Origin: Candidatus Nomurabacteria bacterium
Lineage (GTDB): Bacteria; Patescibacteriota; Minisyncoccia; Phycocordibacterales; UBA918
Assembly (NCBI GenBank): GCA_020631995.1
Contig: JACKGJ010000001.1
Location: 161,753 to 225,752 of the forward strand
Reading direction: 5' to 3'
DNA: 64,000 nucleotides
A model generated the notes under the pieces. The model worked only from the letters and a program-made list of their open reading frames with translations, was not told the DNA's origin and searched no databases. Both the position numbers and the translations under genes were made by a program. Below, in pieces: positions 7,906-32,749 of the stretch; positions within the stretch are counted from its first letter, which is position 1; every line of letters starts with the position of its first letter.

Positions 7906-8145
7906 ATGAAGACAAAAATCCAAAAATGGGGCAATAGCCTGGGAGTACGTTTGCCTAAAAGTATCACAGAACAAAAGGCTCTCCGAGCCGGACTTGGTGT
8001 TTCAATTGTGATTAAGGACAATCAAATCGTTATCGAGCCAAGAGAGGAGGAGTTATCACTGGAGTCTATGTTATCGACCGTATCAGCAGACAATATTCAC
8101 AAGGAAACTGACTGGTCCAAGGCTCAAGGAAATGAAGTATGGTGA
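7906..8145 (+). CDS. mazE: AbrB/MazE-family antitoxin
   Basis: MKTKIQKWGNSLGVRLPKSI SpoVT/AbrB swapped-hairpin motif; overlaps the toxin gene by 7 nt. Confidence 0.85.
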   Translation: MKTKIQKWGNSLGVRLPKSITEQKALRAGLGVSIVIKDNQIVIEPREEELSLESMLSTVSADNIHKETDWSKAQGNEVW

Positions 8146-8492: not shown

Positions 8493-8529
8493 CAAAAATA
8501 GAACGGGCTAATTGCCCGTTCTATTTTTG
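8493..8529. terminator. Bidirectional terminator (mazF / secY transcript ends)
   Basis: CAAAAATAGAACGGGC taat TGCCCGTTCTATTTTTG. Confidence 0.8.
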
Positions 8530-8543
8530 TTTTAAATTAGTGA

Positions 8544-8699
8544 AATTGGATGCAGTTTCCTACTTAGATTCTGGGTGAGGATTTTTGGATGCAGTTTCGT
8601 CAGCTGGAAGGAGCTTTGCGACGGAGACGTAGGCGAACTACGGCGACCAAGCAAAGCGGCTGAAGCTGGCGGAAATGCGCCAAAAAGACCAGCCAGAAT
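8544..8699 (+). repeat. Structured intergenic hairpin element R2 (subfamily I) with an extra 5' half-copy
   Basis: GGATGCAGTT at 8587 pairs with AAATGCGCC at 8673. Outer stem is ATTCTGG 8568 / CCAGAAT 8693, abutting the secY stop. A second GGATGCAGTT lies at 8548. Confidence 0.75.
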
Positions 8700-11605: not shown

Positions 11606-11626
11606 ACACCTTGTGATTTAAACTTA

Positions 11627-11734
11627 GGAAATTGGATGAAATCCGACGGGCTGGAGAAAGTTTTGTGAGCGAGCCGTATATAGACATACGGTGACAAGCA
11701 AAACTTTTGAAGCCCTAGGATTTCGCCGATTTCA
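11627..11734 (+). repeat. Structured intergenic hairpin element R3 (subfamily II) between rplF and rplR
   Basis: GGATGAAATCC...GGATTTCGCC middle stem. The 35-nt core 11661-11695 is identical (reverse complement) to 2965-2999. Confidence 0.75.
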
Positions 11735-11740
11735 TATTGT

Positions 11741-12274
11741 TTAAACAGCTTTCTTACCTTGCTTACGAATAATATATTCACCCTGATAGCGAATACCCTT
11801 GCCCTTGTAAGGCTCTGGCTTCTTCACCTTGCGTACGTCAGCCGCAAATTGGCCAATGGCTTCCTTGTCGACTCCCGTTACTGTCACGACACCCTTTTCT
11901 ACCACTACGTTAACTCCCTCAGGAATCTCTTTTTCTACCGGATGAGAGAATCCCATAAGAAGTACAAGCTTGTTGCCTTTCACTTCAGCACGGTAACCGA
12001 CTCCTTCGATTTCTAAAACCTTTTTGAAACCTTCGGTAACTCCGGTCACCATATTGCGAGCGTGCGCAGCGTAAGTACCCCACAGGGCCTTAGCTACAAC
12101 ACTACCCTCTTTTGGAGAGAAGGTAATAACGTTCCCTTCCATCTTAAGTTCAACATCATCTTTAATCTCGCGAGACAAAGAAGTGTTTCCCTTTTTCACA
12201 GTCAAGATACCACCTTCGAAAGTAGCTTCGACGCCGGCTGGCAGTATTACTGGTTGTTTTCCTAATCTAGACAT
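11741..12274 (-). CDS. rplF: 50S ribosomal protein L6
   Basis: MSRLGKQPVILPAGVE..; ATG at 12274 preferred. Confidence 0.95.
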   Translation of the reverse strand: MSRLGKQPVILPAGVEATFEGGILTVKKGNTSLSREIKDDVELKMEGNVITFSPKEGSVVAKALWGTYAAHARNMVTGVTEGFKKVLEIEGVGYRAEVKGNKLVLLMGFSHPVEKEIPEGVNVVVEKGVVTVTGVDKEAIGQFAADVRKVKKPEPYKGKGIRYQGEYIIRKQGKKAV

Positions 12275-14893: not shown

Positions 14894-15322
14894 TTACTCA
14901 CCGTCGCGGGCTACGACACGTCCCTTAAGTGGAAGCTTGGCGGTAGCTTTTCGCAATGCCTCGCGAGCAACCACTTCACTAACGCCGTCTACTTCGAATA
15001 AAACTCGACCAGGTGCAACCTCAAACACGAAGTGGTCTGGATCACCCTTACCCTTACCCATCGGAGTTTCAGCTGCCTTCTTAGTGATAGGGCGATCAGG
15101 GAAGATACGAATCCAAACACGACCAGTTTTGCCGAGAGTACGAGAAATCACACGACGCGCAGCTTCAATCTGATTACTACGCACACGTGCTGGGGAAGTA
15201 GCCTTAAGGCCAAATGAACCAAAGGATACAGTAATACCACGAGTATCCGGACGCGCTAGCTTAGCTTCGCTCTTACGAGCTACTTGCCACTTTCGGTGCT
15301 TTACTTTTTTAGGAAACAACAT
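14894..15322 (-). CDS. rplP: 50S ribosomal protein L16
   Basis: MLFPKKVKHRKWQ.. Confidence 0.95.
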   Translation of the reverse strand: MLFPKKVKHRKWQVARKSEAKLARPDTRGITVSFGSFGLKATSPARVRSNQIEAARRVISRTLGKTGRVWIRIFPDRPITKKAAETPMGKGKGDPDHFVFEVAPGRVLFEVDGVSEVVAREALRKATAKLPLKGRVVARDGE

Positions 15323-15330
15323 ATTAAATA

Positions 15331-16050
15331 TTATGAGTTACGAGATGGTGCTTTTGACTCCTCACGAGCCGGAGCATCAATAGCCGCACGACGATCAGTG
15401 AAAATGTCTCCCCGGTAAATCCACACCTTAATACCAATTACTCCATAAGGAAGGTTGGCGCGGATACGAGCAAAGTCGATGTCAGCACGTAGAGTCTGAA
15501 GAGGGATACGTCCCTTCTTTAGTTCTTCAACACGAGACATATCAGCTCCACCAAGACGACCAGACATCATAATACGTACACCTTGTACGTCACGATTAGC
15601 CATCACCTTCTCGATAGTCTGCTTAAGTACACGACGGAACTGCATACGCTTTTCAAGGCCTTCTGCTACCATCTGTCCAACTAGCTGTGCAGACACTTCT
15701 GGAGAACGAATTTCTTCGATATCAAGCTTGATTTCAGGCTTTTCGATAAGCTTTAGGGTACGAAGCAACATATCAATCTCCTTCTTAAGCTTCACTGCTC
15801 CCTCTCCGCTTCGCCCGATAACGAGCCCTGGACGAGCACTCTTCACAATAATGCGAATTTCTTTTTCATCGCGCTCAATCTCCACCACATCAACAGACAT
15901 ACCCTTCAACTTCTTGAAAAGGAATTTACGGATAGCTGCGTCAGTACGCAAGTATTCTCGAAAACGCTTAGGGTCAGTAGTGAACCAACGACTGCGCCAG
16001 TCACGGTTGATACCAATGCGTTGTATGAATGGGTGAGCTACGTGAGTCAT
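15331..16050 (-). CDS. rpsC: 30S ribosomal protein S3
   Basis: KH and S3-C motifs (HPFIQRIGINRDWRSRWF). Confidence 0.95.
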   Translation of the reverse strand: MTHVAHPFIQRIGINRDWRSRWFTTDPKRFREYLRTDAAIRKFLFKKLKGMSVDVVEIERDEKEIRIIVKSARPGLVIGRSGEGAVKLKKEIDMLLRTLKLIEKPEIKLDIEEIRSPEVSAQLVGQMVAEGLEKRMQFRRVLKQTIEKVMANRDVQGVRIMMSGRLGGADMSRVEELKKGRIPLQTLRADIDFARIRANLPYGVIGIKVWIYRGDIFTDRRAAIDAPAREESKAPSRNS

Positions 16051-16051
16051 A

Positions 16052-16369
16052 TTATTTTAATTCAACGGTTATGTGGCTAGAACGACGGTTGATTGGGGAC
16101 GCTGAACCGCGAGCACGAGGCATAAAACGAGTCATAACAGTTCCCTTGTCCACTGCAACCTTAGCAATCTTCAAACTCTCTACTGTACGACCAGTGTCCT
16201 TGGCATTAGCTACAGCAGAATTGATTACCTTAATGAAAGGTCCTGAAGCTTTCTTATCTACGAAAGACAAGTGCTTAATAGCGTCATTTACCTTCTTGCC
16301 ACGAACAAGGTCAGCGAGTAGTCGCACTTTACGAGGTGATTGACGGTAATTCTTAAGGATTGCTTTCAT
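16052..16369 (-). CDS. rplV: 50S ribosomal protein L22
   Basis: YRQSPRKVRLLADLVRGKKV. Confidence 0.95.
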   Translation of the reverse strand: MKAILKNYRQSPRKVRLLADLVRGKKVNDAIKHLSFVDKKASGPFIKVINSAVANAKDTGRTVESLKIAKVAVDKGTVMTRFMPRARGSASPINRRSSHITVELK

Positions 16370-16375
16370 ATAAAA

Positions 16376-16714
16376 CTATTTCTTAGTGTCACTTGACTTA
16401 GCGGCCTTAGCAGAAGCAATTTCTGCCTCCTTCTTCTTGATGTCCAGTTCCTTCTGCATCTTACCTCCGTGACGAAGGAACTTGGTAGTTGGAGAGAATT
16501 CACCGAGACAGTGACCCACCATTTCTTCAGAAACCATTACTTCGATGTGACTCTTGCCGTTATGTACACCAAAAGTGAATCCCACCATTTCTGGTGAAAT
16601 CATCGCATCGCGAGACCAGGTCTTAATGACTCCAGCTTGGTCTGGCTTCTTTCCGGCAATCTTCTTAAGAAGACGCTCGTCTAGATATGGGCCCTTATAT
16701 AGTGATCGTGACAT
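16376..16714 (-). CDS. rpsS: 30S ribosomal protein S19 with a Lys-rich C-terminal tail
   Basis: [28 protein letters not shown]. Confidence 0.95.
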
Positions 16715-16758
16715 ATAGATAAAACGCTAAGGCTGGCCTGAAATAAGGAAGTTTGTTT

Positions 16759-16860
16759 AAAATCAATGAGATGCAAGGCGGATGAGGAAAATAATGCGAG
16801 GTGAACTTAACGTTCAGAGAGCTTTATTTTCCGACATCCAACGTAGCAGGTCGTGATTTA
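16759..16860 (+). repeat. Structured intergenic hairpin element R4 (subfamily III) in the rplB-rpsS spacer
   Basis: Core 16784-16832 is GAGGAAAATAATGCGAGGTGAAC..GTTCAGAGAG..TTATTTTCC. It resembles 29378-29429 and 28628-28661. Confidence 0.7.
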
Positions 16861-17037
16861 AACTGACTTCTAAGTCAGAAGCCCGTGTGGATGAAGGTAA
16901 CGGCCTACCCCACACGAGTTCCCGACAAGTAGTGATTTGAGCTGTGCCGACCCGCCCTGCCAGGGGCTTTCGGGCATCAGTTCGGAACGGGGGCTATAGT
17001 ACGGGATTCGGTAGAAAAAGTCAACTAAATACATAAC

Positions 17038-17073
17038 AAGAAAACCCGCAAGCTTTTGCCTGCGGGTTTTCTT
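17038..17073. terminator. Hairpin terminator directly after rplB, inside the S10 cluster
   Basis: AAAACCCGCAAGC tttt GCCTGCGGGTTTT with A/T flanks. Confidence 0.7.
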
Positions 17074-17095
17074 GTCTAGAACTCAAATCTTGAGT

Positions 17096-17956
17096 CTATT
17101 TTTTACTTGTCATTCGTGGGCCTAACTTGCGTCTCTTAACAATAAACTTGTTAGATTGCTTCTTCGGACGACGAGTTTTCTGACCCTTACCGGTCGGACG
17201 ACCCTGAGCCGTACGAGAGCGCTTGTGTCCACGTGGCTGTACACCTTCTCCACCTCCGTGTGGGTGGTCTACGGCGTTCTTAGCAGTACCACGAGTCTTA
17301 GGACGAAGTCCCATATGACGAGCGCGTCCTGCCTTACCAATGTTCACTAGACGATTCTCTTCGTTTGAAACTTCACCAATGGAAGCCCAAGCGGTAGAGA
17401 TGATCTTGCGAATTTCAGTTGAAGGTAGACGAACCTGTGTGTAACCAGCGTCCTGCGCCACTACTTCAGCGTAGTTACCAGCAGAACGAGCGATACGAGC
17501 ACCAGCTCCTGGCTTCAACTCCACTGCGTACACAAATGTACCAACTGGAATCTTAGCAAGAGGGAGGCGGTTACCTAGAGTTGGGCGAGCATCTTCTGAG
17601 ACAGTGAAACTATCCCCTACCTGCATACGCTGTGGCACTAGGACATAACGTCGTTCACCATCGGCATAAAGCGCTAGGGCAATGAAACCTGTTCGGTACG
17701 GATCGTACTCGATAGTTTCAATTCGAGCTGGAATATCCTTCTTGTTGAAACGAAAGTCAATTTCACGATACTTACGCTTGTTACCGTTACCACGATACCA
17801 AACGGTAGTGCGTCCCTGACTGTTACGACCACCGGTTGAACGGCGACCCTTTACCAAAGCCTTGTGCGGAGTACTGGAAGTCGAAGACAATTTCTTCTTG
17901 TATTCGATTACGGTCATCCCGCGACGACCTGGTGATGTTGGTTTGTGTTTTTTCAT
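17096..17956 (-). CDS. rplB: 50S ribosomal protein L2
   Basis: HPHGGGEG motif, 286 aa with a basic C-terminal tail. Confidence 0.95.
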   Translation of the reverse strand: MKKHKPTSPGRRGMTVIEYKKKLSSTSSTPHKALVKGRRSTGGRNSQGRTTVWYRGNGNKRKYREIDFRFNKKDIPARIETIEYDPYRTGFIALALYADGERRYVLVPQRMQVGDSFTVSEDARPTLGNRLPLAKIPVGTFVYAVELKPGAGARIARSAGNYAEVVAQDAGYTQVRLPSTEIRKIISTAWASIGEVSNEENRLVNIGKAGRARHMGLRPKTRGTAKNAVDHPHGGGEGVQPRGHKRSRTAQGRPTGKGQKTRRPKKQSNKFIVKRRKLGPRMTSKK

Positions 17957-18002
17957 AATTTTACTTTGCGGGTACTACTGACCCATAACTGTAATTAGTA
18001 AT

Positions 18003-18362
18003 TTAGATCAATGAAATGCTATCGCCCTTCTTAAGGTATACGTAAGCTTTTTTCATTCCGTGTTGTGTCATCACTCGACCTTTCGAGCGAGACTTGAACT
18101 GCCTTGGACTTTTGTTGACGATGTTTATTCTCACCGGCGTCACACCATAGAAAGTCTTTACGGCCTCACGTACGTCAAATTTCGATGCAGAACGAGCTAC
18201 TTCAAAAGAGTAGATGTTCCTTTCATTCATCTTCATCGCCTTTTCGGTGATGCGAGGAGAACGAAGTACGAAAGAGAGGTCGCGGGCTACATCAGCACCG
18301 CCCGTGCTAACAGCTTTCTTTTCTTTCTTAGTGGTGGTTTTTTTCTGACTAAAGAGTGCCAT
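18003..18362 (-). CDS. rplW: 50S ribosomal protein L23 with a Lys/Thr-rich N-terminal extension
   Basis: Position and VLRSPRITEKA..YSFEV motif. Confidence 0.9.
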   Translation of the reverse strand: MALFSQKKTTTKKEKKAVSTGGADVARDLSFVLRSPRITEKAMKMNERNIYSFEVARSASKFDVREAVKTFYGVTPVRINIVNKSPRQFKSRSKGRVMTQHGMKKAYVYLKKGDSISLI

Positions 18363-18381
18363 ATTAATTAAGTTATTGTTT

Positions 18382-19047
18382 CTAGTTCGTTACGCGCTTT
18401 TCCAAAGTCTCAAGAGAGGCCTTTGGTTCAACCACGATAACGTACTTATAAGTTAGAAGATCAACTGGGTTGATATCCTTGGCCATTACAACTTCGAGAT
18501 TTCCAAAGTTTCGGAAACTCTTCTCAGTTGCAATATCACGAGTCGCCAACACTACTACTGCAGTATTCTTGCGCTTCGTTACTAATTCCTTCTGGTCAAT
18601 AGCGGTAGCCAAAGACTTAAGGATGTTCTTAGCGTCTTGAGCTTTCGGCTCAGCGAATGCTAATGAATCAACGAAGATAACTTCACCGTCTTGGTACTTG
18701 CGGGTCAAAGTAACTGCAAGTGCCTTGGCGCGAACCTTCTTGTTAATCTTGCGAGTATAGTCTTTCTCAGAGATTGGGCCGTGTGCCACACCTCCTCCAG
18801 TCCAAATCGGAGAGCGACGAGAACCGTGACGCGCACGTCCGGTACCCTTCTGCTTCCAAGGCTTTCGCCCTCCTCCACGTACTTCACCACGATCCTTGGT
18901 GTCGGCAGTACCAGCGCGGGCATTACCCTGCATCGCTACCACTACTTCATGTACCAAGTCAGCGTTCCAAGCGACGTTGAAAAGAGACTCTGGTAGAGTA
19001 ATTTCTGAAGCCTTGCCACCATCTTGTTTATATATTTGTGCTTTCAT
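18382..19047 (-). CDS. rplD: 50S ribosomal protein L4
   Basis: GGGRKPWKQKGTGRARHGSRRSPIWTGGGVAHGP. Confidence 0.95.
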   Translation of the reverse strand: MKAQIYKQDGGKASEITLPESLFNVAWNADLVHEVVVAMQGNARAGTADTKDRGEVRGGGRKPWKQKGTGRARHGSRRSPIWTGGGVAHGPISEKDYTRKINKKVRAKALAVTLTRKYQDGEVIFVDSLAFAEPKAQDAKNILKSLATAIDQKELVTKRKNTAVVVLATRDIATEKSFRNFGNLEVVMAKDINPVDLLTYKYVIVVEPKASLETLEKRVTN

Positions 19048-19064
19048 ATTATTGAATTACAAAT

Positions 19065-19694
19065 TTAGGCGGCAGCGCGCACTTCTACTAAAGTCCCCTT
19101 TCGACCAGGGATTGCTCCCTTTACGAGGATTGTATTCTCTTCAGCGTTTACTTGAACAATCTTAAGGTTCTTAACCGTAATACGGTCAGAGCCCATACGT
19201 CCAGCCATACGCATACCCTTGATAACGCGTCCTCCATCACGTCCTCCACCTCCAATAGAACCTGGAGCACGAAGTGAGTGCTTACGTCCGTGAGAAGCCA
19301 TGTCTCCATGGAAACCGTGACGCTTAACCACACCCTGGAAGCCCTTACCTTTTGAGGTAGATGACACAGTTACAGTGTCGCCAGCAGCAAAAACTGAAGA
19401 ATCAATTGTTGCACCCACCTCTATTCCGTCTAGCGCTTCACCTTGTGAAGCACGGGCACGAAACTCCTTCACGTAGCGCTTAGCGCCACCTTGGTGACCG
19501 AGGTCAGCCTTACCAAGTCGTGATTCCTTCTGCTCACCACCTGCTACCTGTACAGCGTCGTAACCGTCTTTCTCAGACGATTTCACAGCCGTTACAACTA
19601 GTGGAGTGACCCGAAGGATGGTTACTGGGAAACAGGTTCCCTTTTCATCAAAGACTTGAGTCATCTTGTCTTTGGTTCCTAAAATGAACTTCAT
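19065..19694 (-). CDS. rplC: 50S ribosomal protein L3
   Basis: SKGKGFQGVVKRHGFHG. Confidence 0.95.
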   Translation of the reverse strand: MKFILGTKDKMTQVFDEKGTCFPVTILRVTPLVVTAVKSSEKDGYDAVQVAGGEQKESRLGKADLGHQGGAKRYVKEFRARASQGEALDGIEVGATIDSSVFAAGDTVTVSSTSKGKGFQGVVKRHGFHGDMASHGRKHSLRAPGSIGGGGRDGGRVIKGMRMAGRMGSDRITVKNLKIVQVNAEENTILVKGAIPGRKGTLVEVRAAA

Positions 19695-19875
19695 TCAATC
19701 AGGCTTACATTAATAAATGTCTCTGACCAGAAACGGGTAATAAAAAACACGTTCCAGGACACAGCCACAAAACGCGGATAGTGCCCATTGGTTCTCAAGG
19801 ATGCAAGCACCCCGTCATCGAACTTAGGTCTTTAAGACCGCTGTACTATATAGTTTTTCAGCAAAAAAGCAAGGG

Positions 19876-20757
19876 TTAAACACCGATGCTGAACCGTACA
19901 TAAATCCCTGTTGGCAAAACTCGGTCGGAGGATGATTCTTTAATGTTCAGTGAACCAAAGGTGCCAGACGCTTTACCAAAAACACTTTCTACCGCTTGGG
20001 CAAATGATTCAGGAGCGAAGCCGGCGGCGTAACCAGAGAGAACCACGAATGAGCCGGGTTTCTCTGAGAGAATCTCTTTCAGATTCTTAAGGAGCGGGAC
20101 CAAATCATTTTCAATATGCCAGACCTGACCTTTAGCACCACGGCCAAAGGCTGGTGGATCTAAGATAATGCCGTCATACTTGGCTCCACGTCGCACCTCA
20201 CGCTTCACGAAGGCAGCGGCGTCGTCCACTATCCAGCGTACTGCATCATCAGGCAACTCACTCGCTTTAGCGTTCTCGCTCGCCCATTCCATTGATTGTT
20301 TAGAAGAATCAACGTGGGTCACTTTGGCTCCAGCGAGAGCGGCAGCGAGTGTGGCGGCACCCGTATACCCGAATAGGTTAAGAACACTTGGTGACTCTCC
20401 TCCCTTCTTCATATCCTTAACTTTTTCCATTATCCAAGTCCATTGACTGGCATGTTCTGGAAAAAGTCCGACGTGCTTGAAAGAAGTAAAATGAAGTTTG
20501 AAAGTGAGGTCTGCAAAATCTACCTGCCAATCAACAGGAGTGTCATCGTGAAGCGTCCACTTACCGTCCTTTGCTTCAGAAGTGAATTTGGCTTGAGCGT
20601 CTGACCATAAGTCGGACTTCAAAGGCATCCATATAGCTTGAGTATCTGGTCTATCGGTCGTGATTTTACCAAAACGCTCCAACTTACGACCATTACCTGA
20701 ATCAAGTAATTCGTAGTCGGGCCAAGATTTAGTTGTGATATCTTCTTTCTTCAACAT
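19876..20757 (-). CDS. Class I SAM-dependent (RlmI/RlmK-like) RNA methyltransferase
   Basis: VLNLFGYTGAATLAAALAGA SAM-binding motif I and ILDPPAFGRG motif IV. Confidence 0.7.
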   Translation of the reverse strand: MLKKEDITTKSWPDYELLDSGNGRKLERFGKITTDRPDTQAIWMPLKSDLWSDAQAKFTSEAKDGKWTLHDDTPVDWQVDFADLTFKLHFTSFKHVGLFPEHASQWTWIMEKVKDMKKGGESPSVLNLFGYTGAATLAAALAGAKVTHVDSSKQSMEWASENAKASELPDDAVRWIVDDAAAFVKREVRRGAKYDGIILDPPAFGRGAKGQVWHIENDLVPLLKNLKEILSEKPGSFVVLSGYAAGFAPESFAQAVESVFGKASGTFGSLNIKESSSDRVLPTGIYVRFSIGV

Positions 20758-20760
20758 AGT

Positions 20761-21519
20761 TTATTTGAGATGGTCAGGGTTCTGTCGACTCCACTCATAG
20801 AAAACGACTGCTCCTGAGACGGCAGCATTCAATGACTCAGCGCGAGTATGCATCGGGATAGAGAGCTTATAATCACAAAGCTCCAGGGACTTTTCGCGGA
20901 TTCCTCCACCTTCGTTCCCCACTACAAACACACTTGGTCGGTCAAATTTTGTTTCTGTTAGTTTCTCCCCTTCCATATCAAGCCCATAAATCCAAAAACC
21001 ACGTTCCTTTAATTCACGAAGGGTTTGGTTAACGTTTCCAACTGACACTACTGGAATCTTAAACACCATTCCAACTGAAGTTTTTACTACTGTGCCGGTA
21101 ATTGGCGCCTGTCTGTGCTCTGGGATAATCACACCAGAGAGACCAAGGGCAGCGGCCGAACGAATGATGGCCCCAAGGTTATGTGGGTCTTGCACCTCAG
21201 CACAGACTGCGATAGCTGGATTCTTTGTTACATCAATATTCTCCAGAAAAGTCTTTAGATCAGTCACTAAGGCTGTGGTGTTTAATATACCGATTACACC
21301 TTGGTGAACCGCGTTTTCACCAACTGTTCGGAGCTCGCCTCCACCGAGTGGTTTTACAGAAATATTGTTAGCAGTGGCTAATGCTACAATCTCTTTTTCC
21401 TCCTCAGGCCTTTCTAGAAACACGTTCTTAATAGCCTTTGGCTTATGACGAAGCGCCTCCGTCAGGGAATGACGGCCGTAGATATAGACTTTGTCGCTTT
21501 TTACTTTATCCTTTTTCAC
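20761..21519 (-). CDS. TrmH/SpoU-family 2'-O-ribose RNA methyltransferase (RlmB-like)
   Basis: SpoU motifs (DPHNLGAIIRSA, VVGNEGGGI, LNAAVSGAVVFYE). The ORF extends to 21579, but the GTG at 21519 (VKKDKV..) fits the family N-terminus. Confidence 0.75.
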   Translation of the reverse strand: MKKDKVKSDKVYIYGRHSLTEALRHKPKAIKNVFLERPEEEKEIVALATANNISVKPLGGGELRTVGENAVHQGVIGILNTTALVTDLKTFLENIDVTKNPAIAVCAEVQDPHNLGAIIRSAAALGLSGVIIPEHRQAPITGTVVKTSVGMVFKIPVVSVGNVNQTLRELKERGFWIYGLDMEGEKLTETKFDRPSVFVVGNEGGGIREKSLELCDYKLSIPMHTRAESLNAAVSGAVVFYEWSRQNPDHLK

Positions 21520-21596
21520 CTGTGCAATATAACACAATGAATAAAATGCACACGCTAGAGGTTGCAATTTTGGCGACACAGGTAGATTATGCAGTT

Positions 21597-21820
21597 AAGG
21601 AGACGGGAACGGTCCTCCGTCTCACTTGTTCCTGAAACTAGGACCGTATGGAGATTGAAATGGAAATCTACAGGATTTTCGGAAAGTCGTTAACGGCCTT
21701 CGAGCTACTCCTGTTATTCCACGTTCCGAACCCGTAGGACTACGAGGCCTACAGAGGTTCCCGCGACAGCGGTAGTGAACAATGTGGCGTCCGATGAGAA
21801 ATCATCGGACGCCATTTAAT
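21597..21820 (+). ncRNA. Candidate + strand small RNA (unknown class) among - strand genes
   Basis: TTGCAA (21562) - 17 nt - GATTAT (21585) promoter-like signal. A strand-specific terminator (13-bp stem 21785-21814, GAAA loop, then TTTAATTTT) exists only on the + strand. Several internal helices and no ORF. Confidence 0.35.
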
Positions 21821-21834
21821 TTTATTTCACATAC

Positions 21835-21867
21835 ACAAAAACCCAGACCAAAGGTCCGGGCTTTTGT
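21835..21867 (-). terminator. Terminator of the tuf-rpsJ transcript
   Basis: Hairpin ACAAAAGCCCGGACC / GGTCTGGGTTTTTGT on the - strand (two G.U pairs) followed by a T-run. Confidence 0.7.
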
Positions 21868-21895
21868 TGCAACTGGCAACACTAAACTTTTCTGT

Positions 21896-22020
21896 AAATC
21901 TTAAGAAATGGGATGCAGTTGTATTGGTTGGAGGAATTTTGACGACGGAGCCTTAGTTGACCTAAGGTGACCGAGACAAAATTCCGAAACCAGTGCAAAT
22001 GCGCCGATTTCTTAAGATTT
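21896..22020 (+). repeat. Structured intergenic hairpin element R5 (subfamily I), 3' of rpsJ
   Basis: A 14-bp perfect outer stem (21896-21909 / 22007-22020) overlaps the rpsJ stop codon. GGATGCAGTT is at 21911 and AAATGCGCC at 21997. The central hairpin is GGAGGAATTTTGACGACGGAGCCTTAG..CTAAGGTGACCGAGACAAAATTCC. Confidence 0.8.
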
Positions 22021-22390
22021 AGTTCATTTTGACGTCGATTGAGACTCCCGACGGCAATGACAAATTCGTCAATGCCTCCACCACCTTTGCACTCGGATTT
22101 AAGATGTCGAGCACACGCTTGTGCATTCGCATCTCAAATTGTTCTCGCGCATCTTTATCGATGAACGTCGAGCGGTTAACGGTGTACTTCTTGATTTCAG
22201 TCGGCAAAGGAATCGGACCTACTACCTGTGCGTCGAAACGCAAAGCAGTGTCAATTATTTGCTTGACTGAAGCATCAAGAATCTTGTTCTCGTAAGCACG
22301 CACACGAATGCGTAACTTCTGAGAATCAGGTGTAGCGACCTCCTTTTTCTTGGTGGTTCGCTTTACAGTCTTTTTTGTTGCAGTTGCCAT
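22019..22390 (-). CDS. rpsJ: 30S ribosomal protein S10 with a Lys-rich N-terminal extension
   Basis: LRIRVRAYENKILD..KDAREQFEMRMHKR; ATG at 22390. Confidence 0.95.
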   Translation of the reverse strand: MATATKKTVKRTTKKKEVATPDSQKLRIRVRAYENKILDASVKQIIDTALRFDAQVVGPIPLPTEIKKYTVNRSTFIDKDAREQFEMRMHKRVLDILNPSAKVVEALTNLSLPSGVSIDVKMN

Positions 22391-25422: not shown

Positions 25423-27593
25423 TAATCCTCAATCTCCTTAGGCACAAATCCTCGAGCTTTCTTGATATCTTCAGCAATGTTTGGCGGAACGACAGCGTAG
25501 TGATCAAACTCCATTACCATATTGGCACGACCTTCAGTCATAGAGCGCAAAGTAGTGGTGTAACCAAAGAGTTCGGAAAGTGGCACCTTAGCACGGATAA
25601 CCTTCACCATATCGCGATCATCCATACCTTCTACCATACCGCGCTTTGAAGCCAAGTTTCCGTTGATATCACCCATAAACTGCTCTGGAGTAGTGATTTC
25701 AATCTTCATCACTGGCTCAAGAATCACAGCTCCAGCCCTCTTGGCACCATCTTTAAAAGCGTTGATAGCAGCAAGTTTGAAGGCAATTTCGGAAGAGTCC
25801 ACATCATGGAAACTACCGTCATATAGCTCAACTGAGACGTCCTCCATCTTGTACCCCGCCACCATACCGCGAGCCATAGCTTCTTTTACTCCCTTCATTA
25901 CTGCTGGGATAAATTCATTTGGAATAACACCTCCCTTGATACTATCGATAAACTCGAAGTGATCTTCGCGAGTAACATTCTTCTTTACCTCTTCACCTTC
26001 TGCTAGAGGCTCCATAGGTTTGATGCGAATCTTAACGTGACCATATTGACCACGACCACCAGTCTGCTTGATGTATTTGTATTCTGATTCAGCCTCACGC
26101 TGGATAGTTTCACGATAAGCTACCTGTGGCTTACCAACATTAGCTTCCACACCAAACTCCCTCTTCATACGATCAACGATGATTTCAAGGTGAAGCTCAC
26201 CCATACCAGCAATAATAGTTTCAAGGGTCTCATCGTCAGTCGAGATGCGTAGGGTTGGGTCTTCATCAGACAACTTCTTCAACGCCATACCCATCTTCTC
26301 TTGGTCGTTCTTAGTCTTAGGTTCAATACGAAGTGCCACCACTGGTTCTGGGAAGACAATCTGTTCTAGCATCAAAGGCTTACCCTCCTCACATAATGAG
26401 TGAGAAGTTTTCACATCCTTAAGCCCTACTCCAGCGGCAATTTCTCCTGCGTATACCGCTTCGATTTCAGTACGCTTGTCAGCCTGTAGCCGCACAATAC
26501 GACCTAGACGTTCCTTCTCACCAGTATTGGCGTTTAGAATATAACTACCAGACTTCACAACTCCTGAGTAAACACGGAAGAAAGTTAGTGCACCTACGAA
26601 TGGGTCAGTCTGTAGCTTGAAAGCAAGTGCACAGAAGGGTTCATCGTCACTCGCACTTCGAGTCTCCTCTTCACCGGTCTTTGGGTTAGTTCCCTTTACT
26701 GGAGGTAGGTCAGTTGGAGCTGGAAGATAATCTACCACTGCATCAAGAATCAACTGGACCCCAACGTTCTTAAGTGCAGAACCAGTCATTACTGGGAAAA
26801 TGGCGTTGTTAATCACCGCCTTACGAAGAGTTTTCTGCAGTTCTTCGTATGAAGGAATAACACCATCTAGATAAGCAGTCATCTGTTCATCGTCGTTTTC
26901 AACAATTCGCTCAACTAGCTCAGCATGGTATTTCTCTGCATCAGCCTTATATTCTTCAGGAATTTCCTGCTCAATAACATTCATTCCCATATCACCCTCG
27001 AAGGTATAAGCCTTCATTTTGAGAAGATCGATAACTCCCTTAAGTTGGTCTTCTTTGCCCCATGGCAGTTGGAAACGAACAGCCTTTGGAGATAGGCGTT
27101 TGAGGATTGAAGCGTATGAACGCTCAAAGTCAGCGCCGGTGCGGTCCATCTTGTTGATGAAACAGATACGAGGTACCCCAGCCTCATCAGCATAGCGCCA
27201 GTTGGTCTCAGACTGAGGCTCTACACCTGCTACACCATCGAACACTACGATAGCACCGTCGAGTACACGCATCGAACGCTTTACCTCAGCAGTAAAGTCG
27301 ATGTGTCCTGGAGTATCAATAATATTGAAATTGTACTTGTGTTCCTTGCTGATTCGGTCGGGATTGAGTGAAGGAGTCCACTGACAAGAAATAGCAGCAG
27401 CTGTAATAGTGATACCGCGTTCGCGCTCCTGATCCATCCAGTCGGTTACCGTCTCACCATCGTGTACCTCACCGATTTTGTGGGACATACCGGTATAGAA
27501 AAGCACACGCTCAGAAGTGGTGGTCTTACCAGCGTCTACGTGGGCAACAATACCGAAGTTACGCAATTTTTCTAATGGAAATTCTCGGGCCAT
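25422..27593 (-). CDS. fusA: Elongation factor G
   Basis: [24 protein letters not shown], 723 aa. Confidence 0.97.
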
Positions 27594-27625
27594 AAATAAT
27601 TTGCTTCTGGGGATTAGGTTTTAGT

Positions 27626-27694
27626 AAAAACGTCTGTCCGTCCATCCCTCGGGCTGACGCCCGGGGCATTGGCGGACAGAACCGGGCGTTTTTT
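27626..27694 (-). promoter_or_regulatory. Terminator-like attenuator hairpin in the fusA 5' leader
   Basis: On the - strand, a nested hairpin (CTGTCCG../..CGGACAG enclosing CCCCGGGC GUCA GCCCGAGGG) is followed by ACGTTTTT about 30 nt upstream of the fusA ATG. Confidence 0.45.
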
Positions 27695-27939
27695 CTAGAA
27701 TAGGAACATCCTCCGGATGTACAGCGGAAGCGGAGTACTGGCTGTCGCCAGTTCCGCTACCGTCGGCGATTCATCCCAGAGCTGACGCTCGGGACATTCT
27801 CGCCGTACGCTAGTAAACTTTCAATAACAAAAGCGCGCGAGCGCTACGAAAGTGTCGGTACTATACGGTATTTGTACAAATTCAGCAACCAAGGATGTCA
27901 CAAAACCTTATAGAAACTTTGTAGTATCATATAGGCATT

Positions 27940-28524
27940 ATGATAATCGGAATTGCTGGACCAACAGCCAGTGGTAAAACCACTATAGCGAGAATGCTTG
28001 AAGAAGAGTATGGAGCAGTGCGTCTGCGTTATTCGAGTATTCTCTCTGAAATGGCCGTTGAACGTGGCCTCGACCCTGATGATAAAGCTACCCTCCAAGG
28101 ACTTTTTCTGAATGAGCGCGAAACACGTGGCGAAGACTTCCTAACCAAGGAAATGGAGGAGCGCGTAGAGAGACTCGATAAAGACTTCATAGTGATTGAA
28201 GGTAATCGCCGACTGGTAGACATTGATACTCTACGCCGTATTGCTACGACTCGTAGTGACTCACTCAACCTCCTTTTTATCGACGCATCTCGTGAAACTC
28301 GTTTTGACCGATACAATGAACGCTTGGTTTCCCAAGGAGAAGAACCGATTTCATTTGAGGAGTTCACTGCACTTGAAGCCAATGATGCTGAAGACGAAAT
28401 CGACGACCTAAAGACAATCTTCGAGAAAGAGGGTCTGATTATTAACACTGACGATCAGAATGCGGAAGCTGTGTTTAAGGAAATCAAAATCCTCCTCACC
28501 AAAACAGAAAAACTGACTCCCTAG
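27940..28524 (+). CDS. P-loop nucleoside/nucleotide kinase-like protein (CoaE/uridine-kinase-like fold)
   Basis: MIIGIAGPTASGKTTIARML Walker A at the extreme N-terminus; family assignment tentative. Confidence 0.55.
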   Translation: MIIGIAGPTASGKTTIARMLEEEYGAVRLRYSSILSEMAVERGLDPDDKATLQGLFLNERETRGEDFLTKEMEERVERLDKDFIVIEGNRRLVDIDTLRRIATTRSDSLNLLFIDASRETRFDRYNERLVSQGEEPISFEEFTALEANDAEDEIDDLKTIFEKEGLIINTDDQNAEAVFKEIKILLTKTEKLTP

Positions 28525-28582
28525 TGGTAACTGAGATTTTCTAGTGCCAGAAACAAGACAAGGTGAAATAAGTTAAGGCCAA

Positions 28583-28707
28583 GAAAACTGCAAAATTTAG
28601 ATGAATCACGAGGCGAACAAGAAAAAAGACCCGAGGTGAACTTGATTGTTCATCGAGGGTCTTTTTTCGCAGTTCAACAAAGTGAGTCGCTAAATTCTGC
28701 AGTTTTC
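28583..28707 (+). repeat. Structured intergenic hairpin element R6 (subfamily III) whose centre doubles as a terminator, 3' of rpsG
   Basis: An 18-bp outer stem (28583-28600 / 28690-28707, one mismatch) abuts the rpsG stop. The centre is AAAAAAGACCCGAGGTGAAC ttgatt GTTCATCGAGGGTCTTTTTT. Confidence 0.75.
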
Positions 28708-29177
28708 TACCAAGCGAAGTGTGCGAACGCTCGGTTAGCCTCCGCCATCTTATGTACATCATCCTTCTTCTTCACGGCAGCACCTTCGTTCTTAGCGGCC
28801 AAGAGAATCTCAGCTGCGAGTGCCTTGAACATTGGTACGCCCTTGGCGCCACGAGCAGAACCAATCATCCAACGTAGAGCTAGAGAGGTACGACGTTCAG
28901 GACGTACTTCTCGAGGAACTTGGTAGTTTGCACCACCAACACGACGAGAACGTACTTCCATCAGTGGACCAGCGTTTTGAAGTGCAGTCTTGTATACCTC
29001 AACTGGGTCACCTCCCTCCTTGTCATTCTTAATGAGCTCAAAAGCAGCGTAAACCACCTTGCGAGCAGTTTCCTTCTGCCCACGTAGCATCACGTAGTTT
29101 ATAAGTTTTTCCACCATCTCATCGCCAAACTTAACGTCAGGCTGGAGAGTTGGTCTTTTTTTAATTGGTCTTCGCAT
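28707..29177 (-). CDS. rpsG: 30S ribosomal protein S7
   Basis: MRRPIKKRPTLQPDVKFGD.. Confidence 0.95.
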   Translation of the reverse strand: MRRPIKKRPTLQPDVKFGDEMVEKLINYVMLRGQKETARKVVYAAFELIKNDKEGGDPVEVYKTALQNAGPLMEVRSRRVGGANYQVPREVRPERRTSLALRWMIGSARGAKGVPMFKALAAEILLAAKNEGAAVKKKDDVHKMAEANRAFAHFAW

Positions 29178-29238
29178 AATGTTCTTTCGTTATCTAAAGC
29201 GAGATACTTAATAATTTTAAAAGGCGGAAACTGTCTAC

Positions 29239-29339
29239 AGTTGTCACCTTTAGAGGAGAATTCACGAGTGAGACGTAGTCAACCTACGACGACTAGTGGA
29301 TTCTCCAAAAAGGAGGCAAATTGTGCTTTTCTCACAACT
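29239..29339 (+). repeat. Structured hairpin element R7a in the rpsL-rpsG spacer
   Basis: GGAGAATTCAC (29255) / GTGGATTCTCC (29296) form an 11-bp stem around GAGTGAGACGTAG tcaac CTACGACGACTAG. Outer pair is AGTTGT/ACAACT. Confidence 0.65.
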
Positions 29340-29352
29340 TTCAAGAAGTAAG

Positions 29353-29457
29353 AAATTGGATGGAGAGCGAGACGTGCGAGGAAAATAATACGAGGTGAAC
29401 TTCAATTGTTCAGTGAGTATTATTTTACCGAAGCACAACGACGCCATCCGCCAATTT
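29353..29457 (+). repeat. Structured hairpin element R7b (subfamily III), abutting the rpsL stop
   Basis: AAATTGG/CCAATTT outer stem and GGATGG/CCATCC pair. Core 29378-29429 is GAGGAAAATAATACGAGGTGAAC..GTTCAGTGAG..ATTATTTTACC. Confidence 0.75.
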
Positions 29458-29458
29458 A

Positions 29459-29869
29459 TTATTTCTTGGGTGCTTTGGTTCCGTAACGTGAGCGCGACTG
29501 CATACGCTTGTCTACTCCGGTCGCATCGTACTTACCACGTACCACGGTGTAGTTAACACCAATGTCTTTCACACGACCACCACGGACCAATACTACGGAG
29601 TGCTCCTGGAGAGTGTGCCCGATACCTGGGATGTAGGCAGTGATTTCTTGTCCGTTGGTAAGACGTACACGAGCAATCTTACGAATAGCAGAGTTTGGCT
29701 TACGAGGAGTCTTAGTAGTGACACGAGTACAAACTCCACGCTTAAACGGTGAGTTGTATTCGTTAGGACGATTCTTGATCTTATCGAAACCAGACGACAA
29801 AGCAGCCACTTTGGTTTTGTGAGCTGGGTCGCGACGTCGCTTCTTAATTAGTTGTTTTATTGTTGCCAT
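29459..29869 (-). CDS. rpsL: 30S ribosomal protein S12
   Basis: [29 protein letters not shown]. Confidence 0.97.
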
Positions 29870-30115
29870 ATGCAATTAGCTCGCACACTCTACTATATGT
29901 AAATAATTTTGCAAGAAAAAACCGCCGCGATGCGACGGGTGCCAAGGGGCAAGGATTCTTATCTGCCGAGACGTGTGGTTTTCGGCCACCAGACAGTTTA
30001 TCCTTGCCCCTCAACTTTTTGACCATTGAGGGACCAGCCGGTGAAGAGAAGTCGTGCAGTAACTTCTCGCTTTTGTCTCGGTTATCTCGATTTCTTGTTT
30101 AAGTATAACAGTTTC

Positions 30116-30760
30116 TTAGAAGAAGGAAATTCCAGTAATAAGTATGAATGCAGAAGACACCAACTTAGCAAACGGTGCCCAGAAAAGATTAATAAAGATG
30201 AATATAAAGATGAAGGTGCCGATAAGGCCCCACCTTTCAAAACTATGCACGAAACTTCGATATTTCATCATAAGACTAAGTGGCAGAAACGGCTGGATTA
30301 TCTTAGAGCCATCCAATGGTGGAATCGGAATCATATTAAAGAAAGCCAGCAAGATGTTTATGTATACAACATATGAGGAGAGCTCGATGAAAGCACTATT
30401 GAGAGACAACACCTCACTGAAGCGAATCATCATTCCAAATAAGAGTGCAATTGCAATATTGACGGCCGGACCGGCAAAAGCCACCTTGGCCTCTCCCCAC
30501 TTTTGGTCCCTCAGATTATAAGGATTGTATGGAACCGGCTTAGCCCAACCAAATAAAATACCGGCATTAGAGAAGAAAAGTAGTGCCGGAACAATAACTG
30601 AACCAAGTAGATCGATATGTACCAGTGGGTTAGGTGAAAGGCGACCCTGAAGCCTGGCTGTCGGATCTCCAAGCCAATCGGCCATATAGCCGTGGGCCAT
30701 TTCGTGGAGAATGATTGAGATAATTAAAGCGACGATAATTACGATTGCAGTAAATTCCAT
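30116..30760 (-). CDS. Site-2 protease family (M50-like) membrane zinc metalloprotease
   Basis: HEMAHG zinc motif in a TM helix, polytopic; ATG at 30760 (MEFTAIV..) chosen. Confidence 0.75.
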   Translation of the reverse strand: MEFTAIVIIVALIISIILHEMAHGYMADWLGDPTARLQGRLSPNPLVHIDLLGSVIVPALLFFSNAGILFGWAKPVPYNPYNLRDQKWGEAKVAFAGPAVNIAIALLFGMMIRFSEVLSLNSAFIELSSYVVYINILLAFFNMIPIPPLDGSKIIQPFLPLSLMMKYRSFVHSFERWGLIGTFIFIFIFINLFWAPFAKLVSSAFILITGISFF

Positions 30761-30868
30761 ATGGTCATATGTTAACTCATAAATGAGGCTCCACAAAGCC
30801 GAAGTCCAGAGAGAGTACCTGTCCAACGATTGCAAAATCAATACCCTGTGGTAATATGGCGCCCACGT

Positions 30869-31111
30869 ATGGCAAAAGTATGTCAAATCACTGGTAAGTC
30901 CACCCAAGTTGGTGGCCGCTACTCAAACCGCACTCGTGCGACGCAGTTTAACCCTTGCGGCAAAGTTCGTCGTGCTCCAAACATTCAGAAGAAGCGTATC
31001 TTCGTTCCTGAAATTGATAGCTTCGTAACTATCAACGTTTCTACCAAAGGACTCCGAACTATGAATAAGAATGGTGCATATAAGACTCTCAAGGAAGCAA
31101 AACTTATCTAA
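30869..31111 (+). CDS. rpmB: 50S ribosomal protein L28
   Basis: MAKVCQITGKSTQVGGRYSNRTRATQ. Confidence 0.9.
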   Translation: MAKVCQITGKSTQVGGRYSNRTRATQFNPCGKVRRAPNIQKKRIFVPEIDSFVTINVSTKGLRTMNKNGAYKTLKEAKLI

Positions 31112-31233
31112 ATCCCTGAAATCGGCGCATTTGTACTTGCTTCAATCGAAGCTCTCCCGCGCCGTATAATCAAATACGTCTTGGTCAAGATTCTCCTTCC
31201 AGCAAGCACAACTGCATCCAATTACAGAAATTT
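31110..31233 (-). repeat. Structured intergenic hairpin element R8 (subfamily I, inverted), 3' of rpmB
   Basis: The + strand shows GGCGCATTT (31124) ... AACTGCATCC (31210), the reverse complement of the R5 ends. The outer stem 31110-31118 / 31225-31233 overlaps the rpmB stop. Confidence 0.8.
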
Positions 31234-31254
31234 AAAGTTTAGTTAAACAATCTA

Positions 31255-31290
31255 AGAAAAGCCCGGAAGCAAATGCTTCCGGACTTTTCT
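31255..31290. terminator. Bidirectional terminator (rpmB / ComEC-MBL gene)
   Basis: AGAAAAGCCCGGAAGC aaat GCTTCCGGACTTTTCT. Confidence 0.75.
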
Positions 31291-32168
31291 TATTTAAGTG
31301 TGACGTTCTCTCCATCCGACCAAAAGACAACCTTCCCATTTTCTGCTGTTCTTAAGGTTGTCACTCCAAAGTTAAAAAGTGCGTCAGTTACTTCTATATG
31401 TGGATGACCATATGAATTATCAGCTCCGGCTGATATGACAGCGTACTCAGGGTCCACCTCCACCAAGAAAAGCTCTGAGGTCGACGTATGTGAACCATGA
31501 TGCCCTGCTTTCAAAACATCGCTCTCTAATTTTTCTCCTTCAACCAAAACTAAATATTCTTCAATCGACTTTGGTGAGTCTCCAGTCAACATAAAGGCCG
31601 TATCACCATAGACCAATCGAGCAACAATAGAGGACGTGTTACTTTCGAGCTCACTGGCATCAATGTCTGGGAACAGAATCTCTAGATATACGTTGTGACC
31701 TAGGTCATATCGCTGTCCACGTCGCGCAAAGTGCACCTCTCCTCCCTCCTCTTCTATCTTACGTACAACTAATTTCCACACTCCAGTTTCACTTTCGTTT
31801 TCAGTACGTATGACGTTACTTACATCGAAACGGTCAAGTACCACAGCTAAACCTCCTATATGATCTGCGTCTGGATGAGTCACTAACACATAATCAATGT
31901 CCCTGTCGGAAAAACTCATTACCTTACTCAGTTGGCGCAGAACACTACTATCTCGTCCGGAATCAATTAGCATTTGCTTGCCACCTGGTGACTGGATGAA
32001 GATGGCGTCGCCTTGCCCTACGTCGAGAAATACTACACAAAGTACATTTGAGTCACATACAGGTGGCCCTATGGGCTTTAAAGAGATCTCAGGCCACCAA
32101 GCGAGCACGAGAGCTGTTACCATCACCGCAAGCACCATCAGTCTATTCTTAATTACTCTTTCATCCAT
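31290..32168 (-). CDS. ComEC/Rec2 C-terminal-type MBL-fold hydrolase domain protein (stand-alone)
   Basis: VFLDVGQGDAIFIQSPGG..VLVTHPDADHIGG..GHHGS with an N-terminal membrane anchor. Confidence 0.75.
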   Translation of the reverse strand: MDERVIKNRLMVLAVMVTALVLAWWPEISLKPIGPPVCDSNVLCVVFLDVGQGDAIFIQSPGGKQMLIDSGRDSSVLRQLSKVMSFSDRDIDYVLVTHPDADHIGGLAVVLDRFDVSNVIRTENESETGVWKLVVRKIEEEGGEVHFARRGQRYDLGHNVYLEILFPDIDASELESNTSSIVARLVYGDTAFMLTGDSPKSIEEYLVLVEGEKLESDVLKAGHHGSHTSTSELFLVEVDPEYAVISAGADNSYGHPHIEVTDALFNFGVTTLRTAENGKVVFWSDGENVTLK

Positions 32169-32182
32169 GATTTGTTATTATA

Positions 32183-32749
32183 ATGCCTATGACTTACGAA
32201 CCTAAAAAATTTAATATCCCTGAGCTCACTGGTATTTCGAAGCAATCAATTGATGAGCACATTAAACTCTACGAGGGCTATGTGAAACACGTAAACCATA
32301 TCCGCGGAGAAATGGATAACGTTAAAGATGATTATGCTCGCTCTGAGATGACTAGGCGACTAGGGTTTGAATTTGGTGGAATGCGTAACCACGAATACTA
32401 CTTCGAGCAGTTTGAAATTGGGCCAAGCTCTCTTCCCGACGGAAAACTTAAGTCTTTGATTGAGGCACAGTGGGGCTCTCTAGAGAAGTTTATCGAACAC
32501 TTTAAAAAGCTTGCTAGTACCCGCGGGGTTGGTTGGACAATGCTGTATATCGACCGCCAAAATGGTGGACTCATTACTGCCTGGGTGGATGAACAGCACT
32601 TTGGCCAACTAGCAGACCTTGATATCGTACTAGGACTCGATATGTGGGAGCACTCATATATGCTCGACTACCCACCAAGTGAAAAACTTAAATATGTTGA
32701 TGCATTCTTCCAAAATCTAAACTGGGAAACAGTTGCTAAAAGAGTCTAA
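32183..32749 (+). CDS. Fe/Mn-family superoxide dismutase-like protein
   Basis: The DMWEHSYMLDY motif matches the DxWEHAYY signature; an N-terminal His-containing helix (DEHIKLYEGYVKHVNH) is present. Confidence 0.75.
   Translation: MPMTYEPKKFNIPELTGISKQSIDEHIKLYEGYVKHVNHIRGEMDNVKDDYARSEMTRRLGFEFGGMRNHEYYFEQFEIGPSSLPDGKLKSLIEAQWGSLEKFIEHFKKLASTRGVGWTMLYIDRQNGGLITAWVDEQHFGQLADLDIVLGLDMWEHSYMLDYPPSEKLKYVDAFFQNLNWETVAKRV

Follow-up and report, generated by a model that had tools for sequence, protein, structure and literature searches.

The stretch analysed here, called the window throughout, is a 64,000-nt piece of Candidatus Nomurabacteria contig JACKGJ010000001.1 that includes ribosomal-protein operons, and a family of long hairpins recurs in it, mostly at the stop codons of genes. 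A sequence-only reading of the window had noted four copies of this hairpin, at 8568, 21896, 31110 and 48674, and all four are present at those coordinates. We built a covariance model of the family from 60 non-redundant copies in public genomes and searched the window with it. The search returned nine full copies and one partial copy, or about one site per 7 kb. Family units are 123-190 nt long, and reading frames were short and unconserved in the copies translated by eye. The four copies are very probably old insertions, now fixed, of a non-autonomous transposable element of the MITE class (miniature inverted-repeat transposable elements). The members and the terminators that accompany them are listed below, with the S10, SecY, T2SS-F/PilC, L28, L6 and L20 genes identified by Pfam and the genes at 28707-29177 and 29459-29875 labelled S7 and S12 by size and gene order only.

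2917-3042, minus strand: L20-site copy, directly after the L20 gene (2575-2919, plus strand); model match 2921-3038, 32.7 bits
8567-8700, plus strand: SecY stop-codon copy; core 8587-8681; model match 8575-8693, 59.7 bits; SecY stop 8699-8701 (minus strand)
11618-11743, plus strand: L6 stop-codon copy, within the spc operon; model match 11622-11739, 35.8 bits; stop 11741-11743 (minus strand)
16748-16870, plus strand: copy in the 380-nt spacer between the genes read as L2 and S19 (L2-S19 spacer); model match 16752-16866, 25.3 bits
21896-22020, plus strand: S10 stop-codon copy; core 21911-22005; model match 21899-22017, 76.1 bits; S10 stop TAA 22019-22021 (minus strand), within the last outer-stem pairs
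28583-28707, plus strand: S7-site copy of another subfamily; model match 28587-28703, 57.8 bits; at the stop of gene 28707-29177 (minus strand)
29239-29321, plus strand: partial or degenerate member without the basal helix; 16 bits over model positions 19-99
29342-29468, plus strand: S12-site copy; model match 29346-29464, 54.9 bits; at the stop of gene 29459-29875 (minus strand)
31110-31234, minus strand: L28 stop-codon copy; core 31124-31219; model match 31112-31231, 72.3 bits
48673-48862, plus strand: PilC/T2SS-F stop-codon copy; model match 48737-48856, 43.1 bits; stop 48858-48860 (minus strand)
21838-21870: GC-rich canonical terminator hairpin, downstream of the S10 copy in the mRNA direction
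8495-8530 and 31248-31283: equivalent terminator hairpins at SecY and L28

Eight of the nine full copies, at S10, SecY, L28, PilC, S7, S12, L6 and L20, have an opposite-strand gene whose stop codon falls within, or immediately beside, the final pairs of the outer stem. The copy in the L2-S19 spacer is the sole one away from the stop codon of a confirmed gene. At S10, SecY and L28 a canonical terminator lies beyond the element in the mRNA direction; the L28 gene, for example, is on the plus strand with its stop at 31109-31111, and the element sits between this stop and the terminator hairpin. The L20-site copy is followed by a GC-rich hairpin (3047-3071) and is 85% complementary to the L6 copy.

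Fold, architecture and covariation

The four copies noted at first had been assigned the shared ends GGATGCAGTT and AAATGCGCC. These are exact in three copies, at a spacing of 95-96 nt (8587-8681 and 21911-22005 on the plus strand, 31219-31124 on the minus strand). The 48674 copy has an interrupted 5' motif: a nested 55-nt insert breaks the core and splits the motif into GGATGCA (48691-48697) and GCAGTT (from 48753). The basal helix with a bulged A, a U.G pair and a G.A mismatch agrees with the earlier description. The distal stem of the 21896 copy, given there as CUGGUU, actually reads UUGGUU/AACCAG and contains a U.G pair. A copy-specific outer stem of 14-20 bp, absent as such from that description, encloses the core in all four cases, and the whole unit is a hairpin of 125-190 nt. 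RNAfold gave -64.9 kcal/mol for the 21896 copy (z -13.6), -68.7 kcal/mol for the SecY copy (z -8.6), -51.7 kcal/mol for the L28 copy (z -7.1) and -73.4 kcal/mol for the 48674 copy (z -7.4). As the sequence-only reading had expected, these folds are better than shuffled controls, with 0 of 200 shuffles reaching the native energy in the four copies.

All copies of the family share one architecture. Terminal inverted repeats of 14-25 bp form the variable outer stem and enclose an imperfect palindrome of about 92-96 nt. The palindrome opens with the basal helix GG-A-UGCA-G-UU / AA-A-UGCG-CC, continues inward through two or three variable helices separated by purine-rich loops, and ends in an apical stem with conserved GUA/UAC. 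The basal helix is asymmetric, consisting of GG, a bulged A, a U.G pair, G-C and a purine-purine mismatch. Its U.G pair is present in six of eight window copies, including divergent subfamilies that lay outside the selection made by the search pattern. A longer Neisseria variant of about 160-180 bp was also observed (L009 2357-2538, L084 5043-5224, L108 3969-4149 and L115 566-725). It carries about 40-90 extra apical nt (…GCGTTGTGCGTTTATGCCCTATGG…), and the apex therefore tolerates insertions.

The compensatory changes proposed from the four copies extend to the wider family. With eight window copies aligned to the family model, a fit that favours structure, 79.6% of cells pair, compared with 37-44% when the partners are slid. 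Both sides change in 34 of 45 pairs, a count that 0 of 500 shuffles match. The 60 non-redundant public copies gave 78.5% paired cells against 34-41% with partners slid by 1-3 columns (0 of 500 shuffles reached the observed level), changes on both sides in 37 of 45 pairs and a covariation score of 0.46 against 0.11-0.15. Substitutions in the two arms are thus correlated both in the window and in public copies. The four copies do not form the separate "Subfamily I" of the sequence-only reading; they are one branch of a larger MITE family.

Distribution in public genomes

A search with the end-motif pattern, as had been suggested, found at least 120 loci in contigs from one genome per species. 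Among the 127 exact-pattern matches listed from species-representative genomes, 107 have flanking complementarity of at least 9 bp. The hosts are mainly Patescibacteria (Parcu-, Kaiser-, Sacchari-, Nomura-, Zambryskibacteria and others), with many further copies in Neisseria dentiae, N. shayeganii and relatives. The family also occurs in metagenome-assembled genomes (MAGs) of Comamonadaceae and Myxococcales. A few contigs labelled as other phyla bear Patescibacteria-type ends and may be binning errors. Two pattern matches in viral contigs lack the hairpin architecture and were set aside as chance. No match was obtained by blastn of a Patescibacteria copy against E. coli genomes, or of one Patescibacteria and one Neisseria copy against plasmids. 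Within the library searched, literature searches by sequence and by topic returned no description of the family, only a table of ISNme1 repeats and general MITE reviews.

Terminal repeats, target duplications and bursts

The element is mobile DNA: it makes 5-bp target duplications, and close relatives differ by its gain and loss. Neisseria copies have GAGACCTTTGCAAAA and TTTTGCAAAGGTCTC at their flanks, which are the ends listed for ISNme1, an insertion sequence (IS) of the IS5 family and the proposed parent of the meningococcal ATR MITE (PMC4596501). The flanks of Patescibacteria copies (TAGGACTTACGCA, AGAACTTTCAAAA and TAAACTTTAAAAA) show by eye a CTTT.CAAAA-type motif as in the Neisseria ends, and several flanks in the window (AAGCTTTCAAAATT, GAAAACTGCAAAATT) are by eye also of this type. 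In the 27 copies bounded by TAGGAC...GTCCTA, perfect 5-bp direct repeats lie immediately outside seven, at least four of five positions match in ten (3% in the control), and three more are perfect at a 1-nt offset. In many Neisseria copies the 5-mers on the two sides match. MAG nzgw440 has five near-identical copies spread over different contigs, which point to a recent burst, and another burst was found in N. shayeganii. In 8-kb blocks from relatives (L042 and L003), the same terminal repeats surround a different interior. A preference for YTAR or TA targets was considered for the C-TAA seen at window copies and was rejected as a rule, as the bases before the stop vary and the 5-bp duplications of young copies are varied.

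Gains, losses and re-used sites in relatives

A contig of the relative UBA6201 (L105) is collinear with 14949-22148 of the window at 80-92% identity. It carries three copies in 7 kb that are extra to those of the window, one between L4 and L3, one upstream of L3 and one in the L2-S19 spacer, and it has one copy in common with the window. The copy in the window's L2-S19 spacer is also found in UBA6201 (L105 1815-1924). A second relative (L079), collinear with 25447-32328, lacks the window's L28 and S12 copies. There the terminator hairpin directly follows the L28 stop; the element occupies precisely the space between them in the window.

Two sites are occupied in both genomes compared, by different subtypes: the S10 stop (L105 7753-7871 versus window 21896-22020) and the S7 stop (L079 4700-4819 versus window 28583-28707). 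The S10-site copy of UBA6201 is 85% identical to the window's SecY copy. In addition to the four copies noted at first, the window contains an orphan GGATGCAGTTTC at 8548-8559. It belongs to an orphan 5' fragment (TGGATGCAGTTTC; 8547-8560, plus strand) that lies immediately upstream of the SecY copy and derives from an older copy or from one partly duplicated; the fragment suggests nested insertion or partial duplication at the SecY site. Together with the re-used S10 and S7 sites, it suggests repeated insertion or replacement at identical sites. Contigs retrieved with the window's SecY were identical over the region of this copy and showed no strain-level variation.

Further observations were made at these sites. 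The orphan TGGATGCAGTTTC stands 39 nt upstream of the 5' end belonging to the SecY copy, and UBA6201 has a similar remnant (GTGAAATCTCTA) upstream of its S10-site copy. Next to the copy in the L2-S19 spacer, positions 16870-17035 are GC-rich over about 165 nt, contain no long open reading frame (ORF) and end at a terminator-like hairpin (17036-17075); the stretch has no Rfam match. In UBA6201 the counterpart of this spacer stretch measures about 520 nt instead of about 84 nt (L105 2085-2608), including an extra copy of the element.

Position, orientation and strand

The association with stop codons extends beyond the window. An antisense stop lies at most 15 nt from the 3' end of the modelled region in 48 of 90 non-Neisseria copies, and TAA or TAG accounts for 46 of these 48. 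The offset seen most often is what a stop supplied by the TAG of the terminal repeat itself would give. A same-sense stop at the 5' end was found in 13 of the 90. In unambiguous tandem contexts, 35 copies are opposite to the upstream gene versus 9 co-oriented (p = 1e-4), counts that rest on crude ORF calls and on copies that are not all independent. Young copies with intact duplications look unbiased in orientation in a small sample (n = 7). GC skew makes the minus strand the leading strand over 1-52 kb of the window. Both minus-strand copies follow plus-strand genes (L28 and L20), and orientation therefore tracks the gene and not replication.

The two strands of the element also differ in how well they pair. 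In each of the nine window copies the strand folded initially is the better-pairing one, with an advantage of 6.5-22 kcal/mol (for the S7-site copy at 28583, -60.1 versus -53.6 kcal/mol). On this strand, G.U pairs outnumber A.C by 89 to 20 in two well-aligned helices, and the family model scores the 21899 match at 76 bits on the folded strand versus 14.5 bits on the reverse. Six of the seven young copies whose duplications are perfect already have the asymmetry, which therefore belongs to the active element and did not arise by decay after insertion. In Neisseria copies no strand asymmetry of folding energy is seen. Since the elements are antisense to the gene whose stop codon they adjoin, the folded strand is not the one expected in mRNA. 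The hairpin on the mRNA strand is still strongly structured (z -10, -5 and -3.8). Possible sources of the strand preference are a need of the element itself, for a left-end transcript or a single-stranded intermediate, and a real role as antisense RNA.

Comparison with known elements

We file the family with the bacterial MITEs that give hairpin transcripts, as a member whose interior is unusually conserved and co-varying and whose orientation is linked to genes. The closest parallel in form is ERIC/IRU, an intergenic, co-transcribed MITE of 127 bp whose transcript folds into a long stem-loop with A-G and similar mispairs (PMC2229807). Its orientation is crucial to the stability of the upstream mRNA, and ribosome-exposed RNase E sites destabilise upstream transcripts (PMC2229807). 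Like ERIC, the present element is an imperfect palindrome of about 125 bp whose terminal repeats are short, whose termini carry TA and which duplicates its target. Unlike ERIC, which duplicates TA, it duplicates 5 bp, has a strong orientation bias and an interior conserved across phyla, and resides in Patescibacteria, Neisseriaceae and other hosts. Homology to ERIC was rejected: the family model gives E. coli ERIC 8.9 bits, and the alignment score of 16.6 compares with 15.1 +/- 0.9 for shuffles.

The ATR MITE and ISNme1 share with Neisseria copies of the family the same terminal repeats (GAGACCTTTGCAAAA), and repeats that look by eye like ATR, with those ends and another interior, occur at the same loci (L003, L071 and L120). 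The interior of our family is unrelated to ATR and is common to Patescibacteria, where the terminal repeats are merely similar (TAGGACTTACGCA, AGAACTTTCAAAA). The Correia/NEMIS elements of Neisseria are likewise small MITEs with long-hairpin transcripts, proposed as RNase III targets that modulate neighbouring mRNAs (PMC2229807); they have 24-bp repeats and a TA duplication (PMC2229807, Table 1). The present family differs in its ISNme1-type ends and 5-bp duplications, and no IHF or promoter motifs were identified in it. REPINs resemble it as extragenic, long-lived hairpins of about 100 nt with structure-preserving substitutions. REPINs have GTAG/CGTC tags, a HUH transposase and no duplication, whereas this family has duplications and terminal repeats of the DDE type.

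Interpretation and alternatives

The MITE reading outlines a route from insertion to the present distribution. An ISNme1/IS5-type DDE transposase would move the element in trans. The few bases between a stop codon and its terminator, or between cistrons, are probably among the few landing sites tolerated in compact genomes. Once inserted, the element would be transcribed together with the upstream gene, giving the reverse complement of the folded strand, and a long but weaker hairpin would form in the 3' untranslated region or the intercistronic RNA. To judge from comparable elements, it probably alters the processing or stability of the neighbouring mRNA rather than acting as a free RNA, and RNase III could take part by analogy with Correia. 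Selection acting on transcripts once the element is in place is the most likely cause of the orientation bias; it would be purifying selection against the orientation that puts the stronger hairpin at the stop codons of essential genes. The small set of young copies, which look unbiased, fits such a course.

Several observations weigh against this interpretation. A plain selfish MITE would not lead one to expect that the interior, and not the ends alone, is conserved across phyla with strong covariation, that the better-pairing strand is the non-mRNA strand even in young copies with intact duplications, or that the gene-linked orientation bias is absent in Neisseriaceae (5 versus 8). The link to ISNme1 rests on a 15-nt repeat from the table of one paper. 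The fetched 8-kb loci contained no autonomous IS bounded by matching ends, neither they nor the window ORFs scanned yielded a transposase or end pairs 1-3 kb apart, and a search for a parent IS with the 5' and 3' core motifs 0.13-3 kb apart gave only longer variants and random pairs. The four window copies have no target duplication recognisable by eye, and their outer stems differ from copy to copy. For these two reasons we infer mobility in the window from the relatives, and we read the window copies as old insertions.

It is possible, at a low probability, that the interior of about 92 nt is a functional cargo. It would be a structured single-strand module (RNA, possibly single-stranded DNA) with an asymmetric basal helix read by a conserved factor, and IS5-type repeats would ferry it between phyla. 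Highly expressed genes of Patescibacteria would retain it at their 3' ends in a single orientation owing to an activity at that place, such as that of an antisense or processing signal. The interior would also be the preferred landing site of a second mobile module, of 55 nt, making a two-tier nested system in reduced genomes.

We regard it as improbable that the copies are independently transcribed genes for small structured RNAs, such as cis-antisense RNAs that overlap highly expressed genes at their 3' ends. In that case the outer stem would be a processing stalk, cut for instance by RNase III, that frees an RNA of about 95 nt with its 5' GGAUG and 3' CGCC ends paired. Much of the structural evidence is in keeping with this reading: the folded strand is better in nine of nine copies, G.U exceeds A.C by 89 to 20, divergent subfamilies retain the asymmetric basal helix, the internal loops are purine-rich, as is typical of protein-binding RNAs, and the element is consistently antisense to the adjacent gene. 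The sequence-only reading had proposed a structured RNA family, and its hairpin, covariation and folding strand stand; the RNA-gene reading does not, given a mobile unit, no Rfam match, no promoter-like site and the antisense placement. A scan of regions around four copies in the folding orientation, limited for promoters to the sigma-70 consensus, found no fitting promoter upstream and no terminator downstream. In Rfam 15, only a tRNA reaches the gathering threshold over the whole window, and in E-value mode the best sub-threshold matches on four different copies are hairpin artefacts. The duplications, the terminal repeats shared with unrelated MITEs, the bursts and the gain and loss mark transposed DNA, and Neisseria copies lack both the strand asymmetry and the orientation bias.

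Very doubtful is the proposal that the compensatory changes have no functional meaning and that template switching or intrastrand repair during replication keeps the palindrome complementary. Quasi-palindrome correction is an established mutational mechanism and would yield double substitutions without selection. It would also erase asymmetries, and across phyla and subfamilies the element retains its bulged A, its U.G pair, its purine mismatches and its purine-rich loops; the excess of G.U over A.C on one strand would be left unexplained.

We give hardly any credence to a REP/REPIN-type palindrome moved as single-stranded DNA by a RAYT (an IS200/IS605-like HUH transposase) with the better-pairing strand active, in spite of a long hairpin of about REPIN size, an extragenic place after genes, long persistence with compensatory changes and strand-specific pairing. 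HUH transposases are not known to make 5-bp target duplications, and such duplications are present here. The ends carry no GTAG or CGTC tag and match an IS5-family repeat. The GC skew puts the better-pairing strand on the leading-strand template, opposite to what single-stranded transposition on the lagging strand predicts, and the two minus-strand copies flip with their genes and not with the direction of replication.

Host-evolved, non-mobile terminators or attenuators of these operons would fit the place directly after stop codons and the very stable hairpins on both strands, but are scarcely credible where separate canonical GC-rich terminators with T-runs come after the elements, the outer stem has no U-tract behind it, some copies lie inside operons that need read-through (L6-L18 and the genes read as S12 and S7), and the same sequence family with target duplications occurs in unrelated phyla.

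A nested 55-nt module and neighbouring features

The insert in the PilC/T2SS-F copy is itself a member of a repeated unit.

48698-48752, plus strand: nested 55-nt module, in the basal helix after GGATGCA; boundary ambiguous by 1-3 nt

It is homologous to an insert in the basal helix's 3' arm in L058 (6479-6532) and to one in L011 (about 1435-1490, minus strand). A pattern for the module matched at least 120 loci in metagenome contigs (including L126-L245). Across 101 distinct instances, conservation runs from an abrupt CACCACAAGrGyATTTCCA to ...TAGGTC, the unit measures 54-56 nt, and the consensus is CACCACAAGrGyATTTCCA-TTTTyATAGTCG-loop-CTCCTTrAAAAyTAGGTC; the inner stem co-varies. The module is found in the basal helix of the MITE just after GGATG or GAGATG, in either orientation, at the centre of terminator-like palindromes, and in head-to-tail arrays with a 55-nt period. 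A variant stands directly before start codons, where the downstream genes resemble by eye S20, S4 and SSB in their first residues. The module is mostly intergenic and unbiased in orientation (18 versus 17), and no target duplication was evident by eye at the junctions listed. It had no Rfam match, with eight module-bearing contigs included, and no description was found in the literature. It offers a lead of its own: it is very abundant in metagenomes and matches no described family.

Two other features of the window were recorded. Two tandem direct repeats of 86 nt, 87% identical, lie at 44574-44745 between the triosephosphate isomerase gene and the next ORF, and each terminates in a GGAGGGAACAAGAAACTATTCTTGTTCCCTCC-type hairpin. 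In Rfam these repeats gave sub-threshold matches of the hairpin type only (the Plastid-psbA-2 3' untranslated region model at 35.7 bits versus a gathering threshold of 55.8). A PemK/MazF-type toxin gene (8139-8483, plus strand) converges on SecY, with 8495-8530 as common bidirectional terminator, and on a contig of the source strain (L124) a MazE-like antitoxin gene adjoins the toxin gene.

Implications

For annotation, such hairpins should be masked as repeats and not called as RNA genes. The elements account for odd spacers in ribosomal-protein operons that are otherwise compact in this genome of Patescibacteria type. Mobile DNA is usually said to be scarce in Patescibacteria. In this case the stop codons of essential genes are often supplied by a MITE or lie against one, and the element turns over between close relatives. 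An interior conserved from Patescibacteria to Neisseria, combined with covariation and an orientation linked to genes, is unusual for a MITE, and the family offers a concrete case for testing transcript-level selection on such elements.

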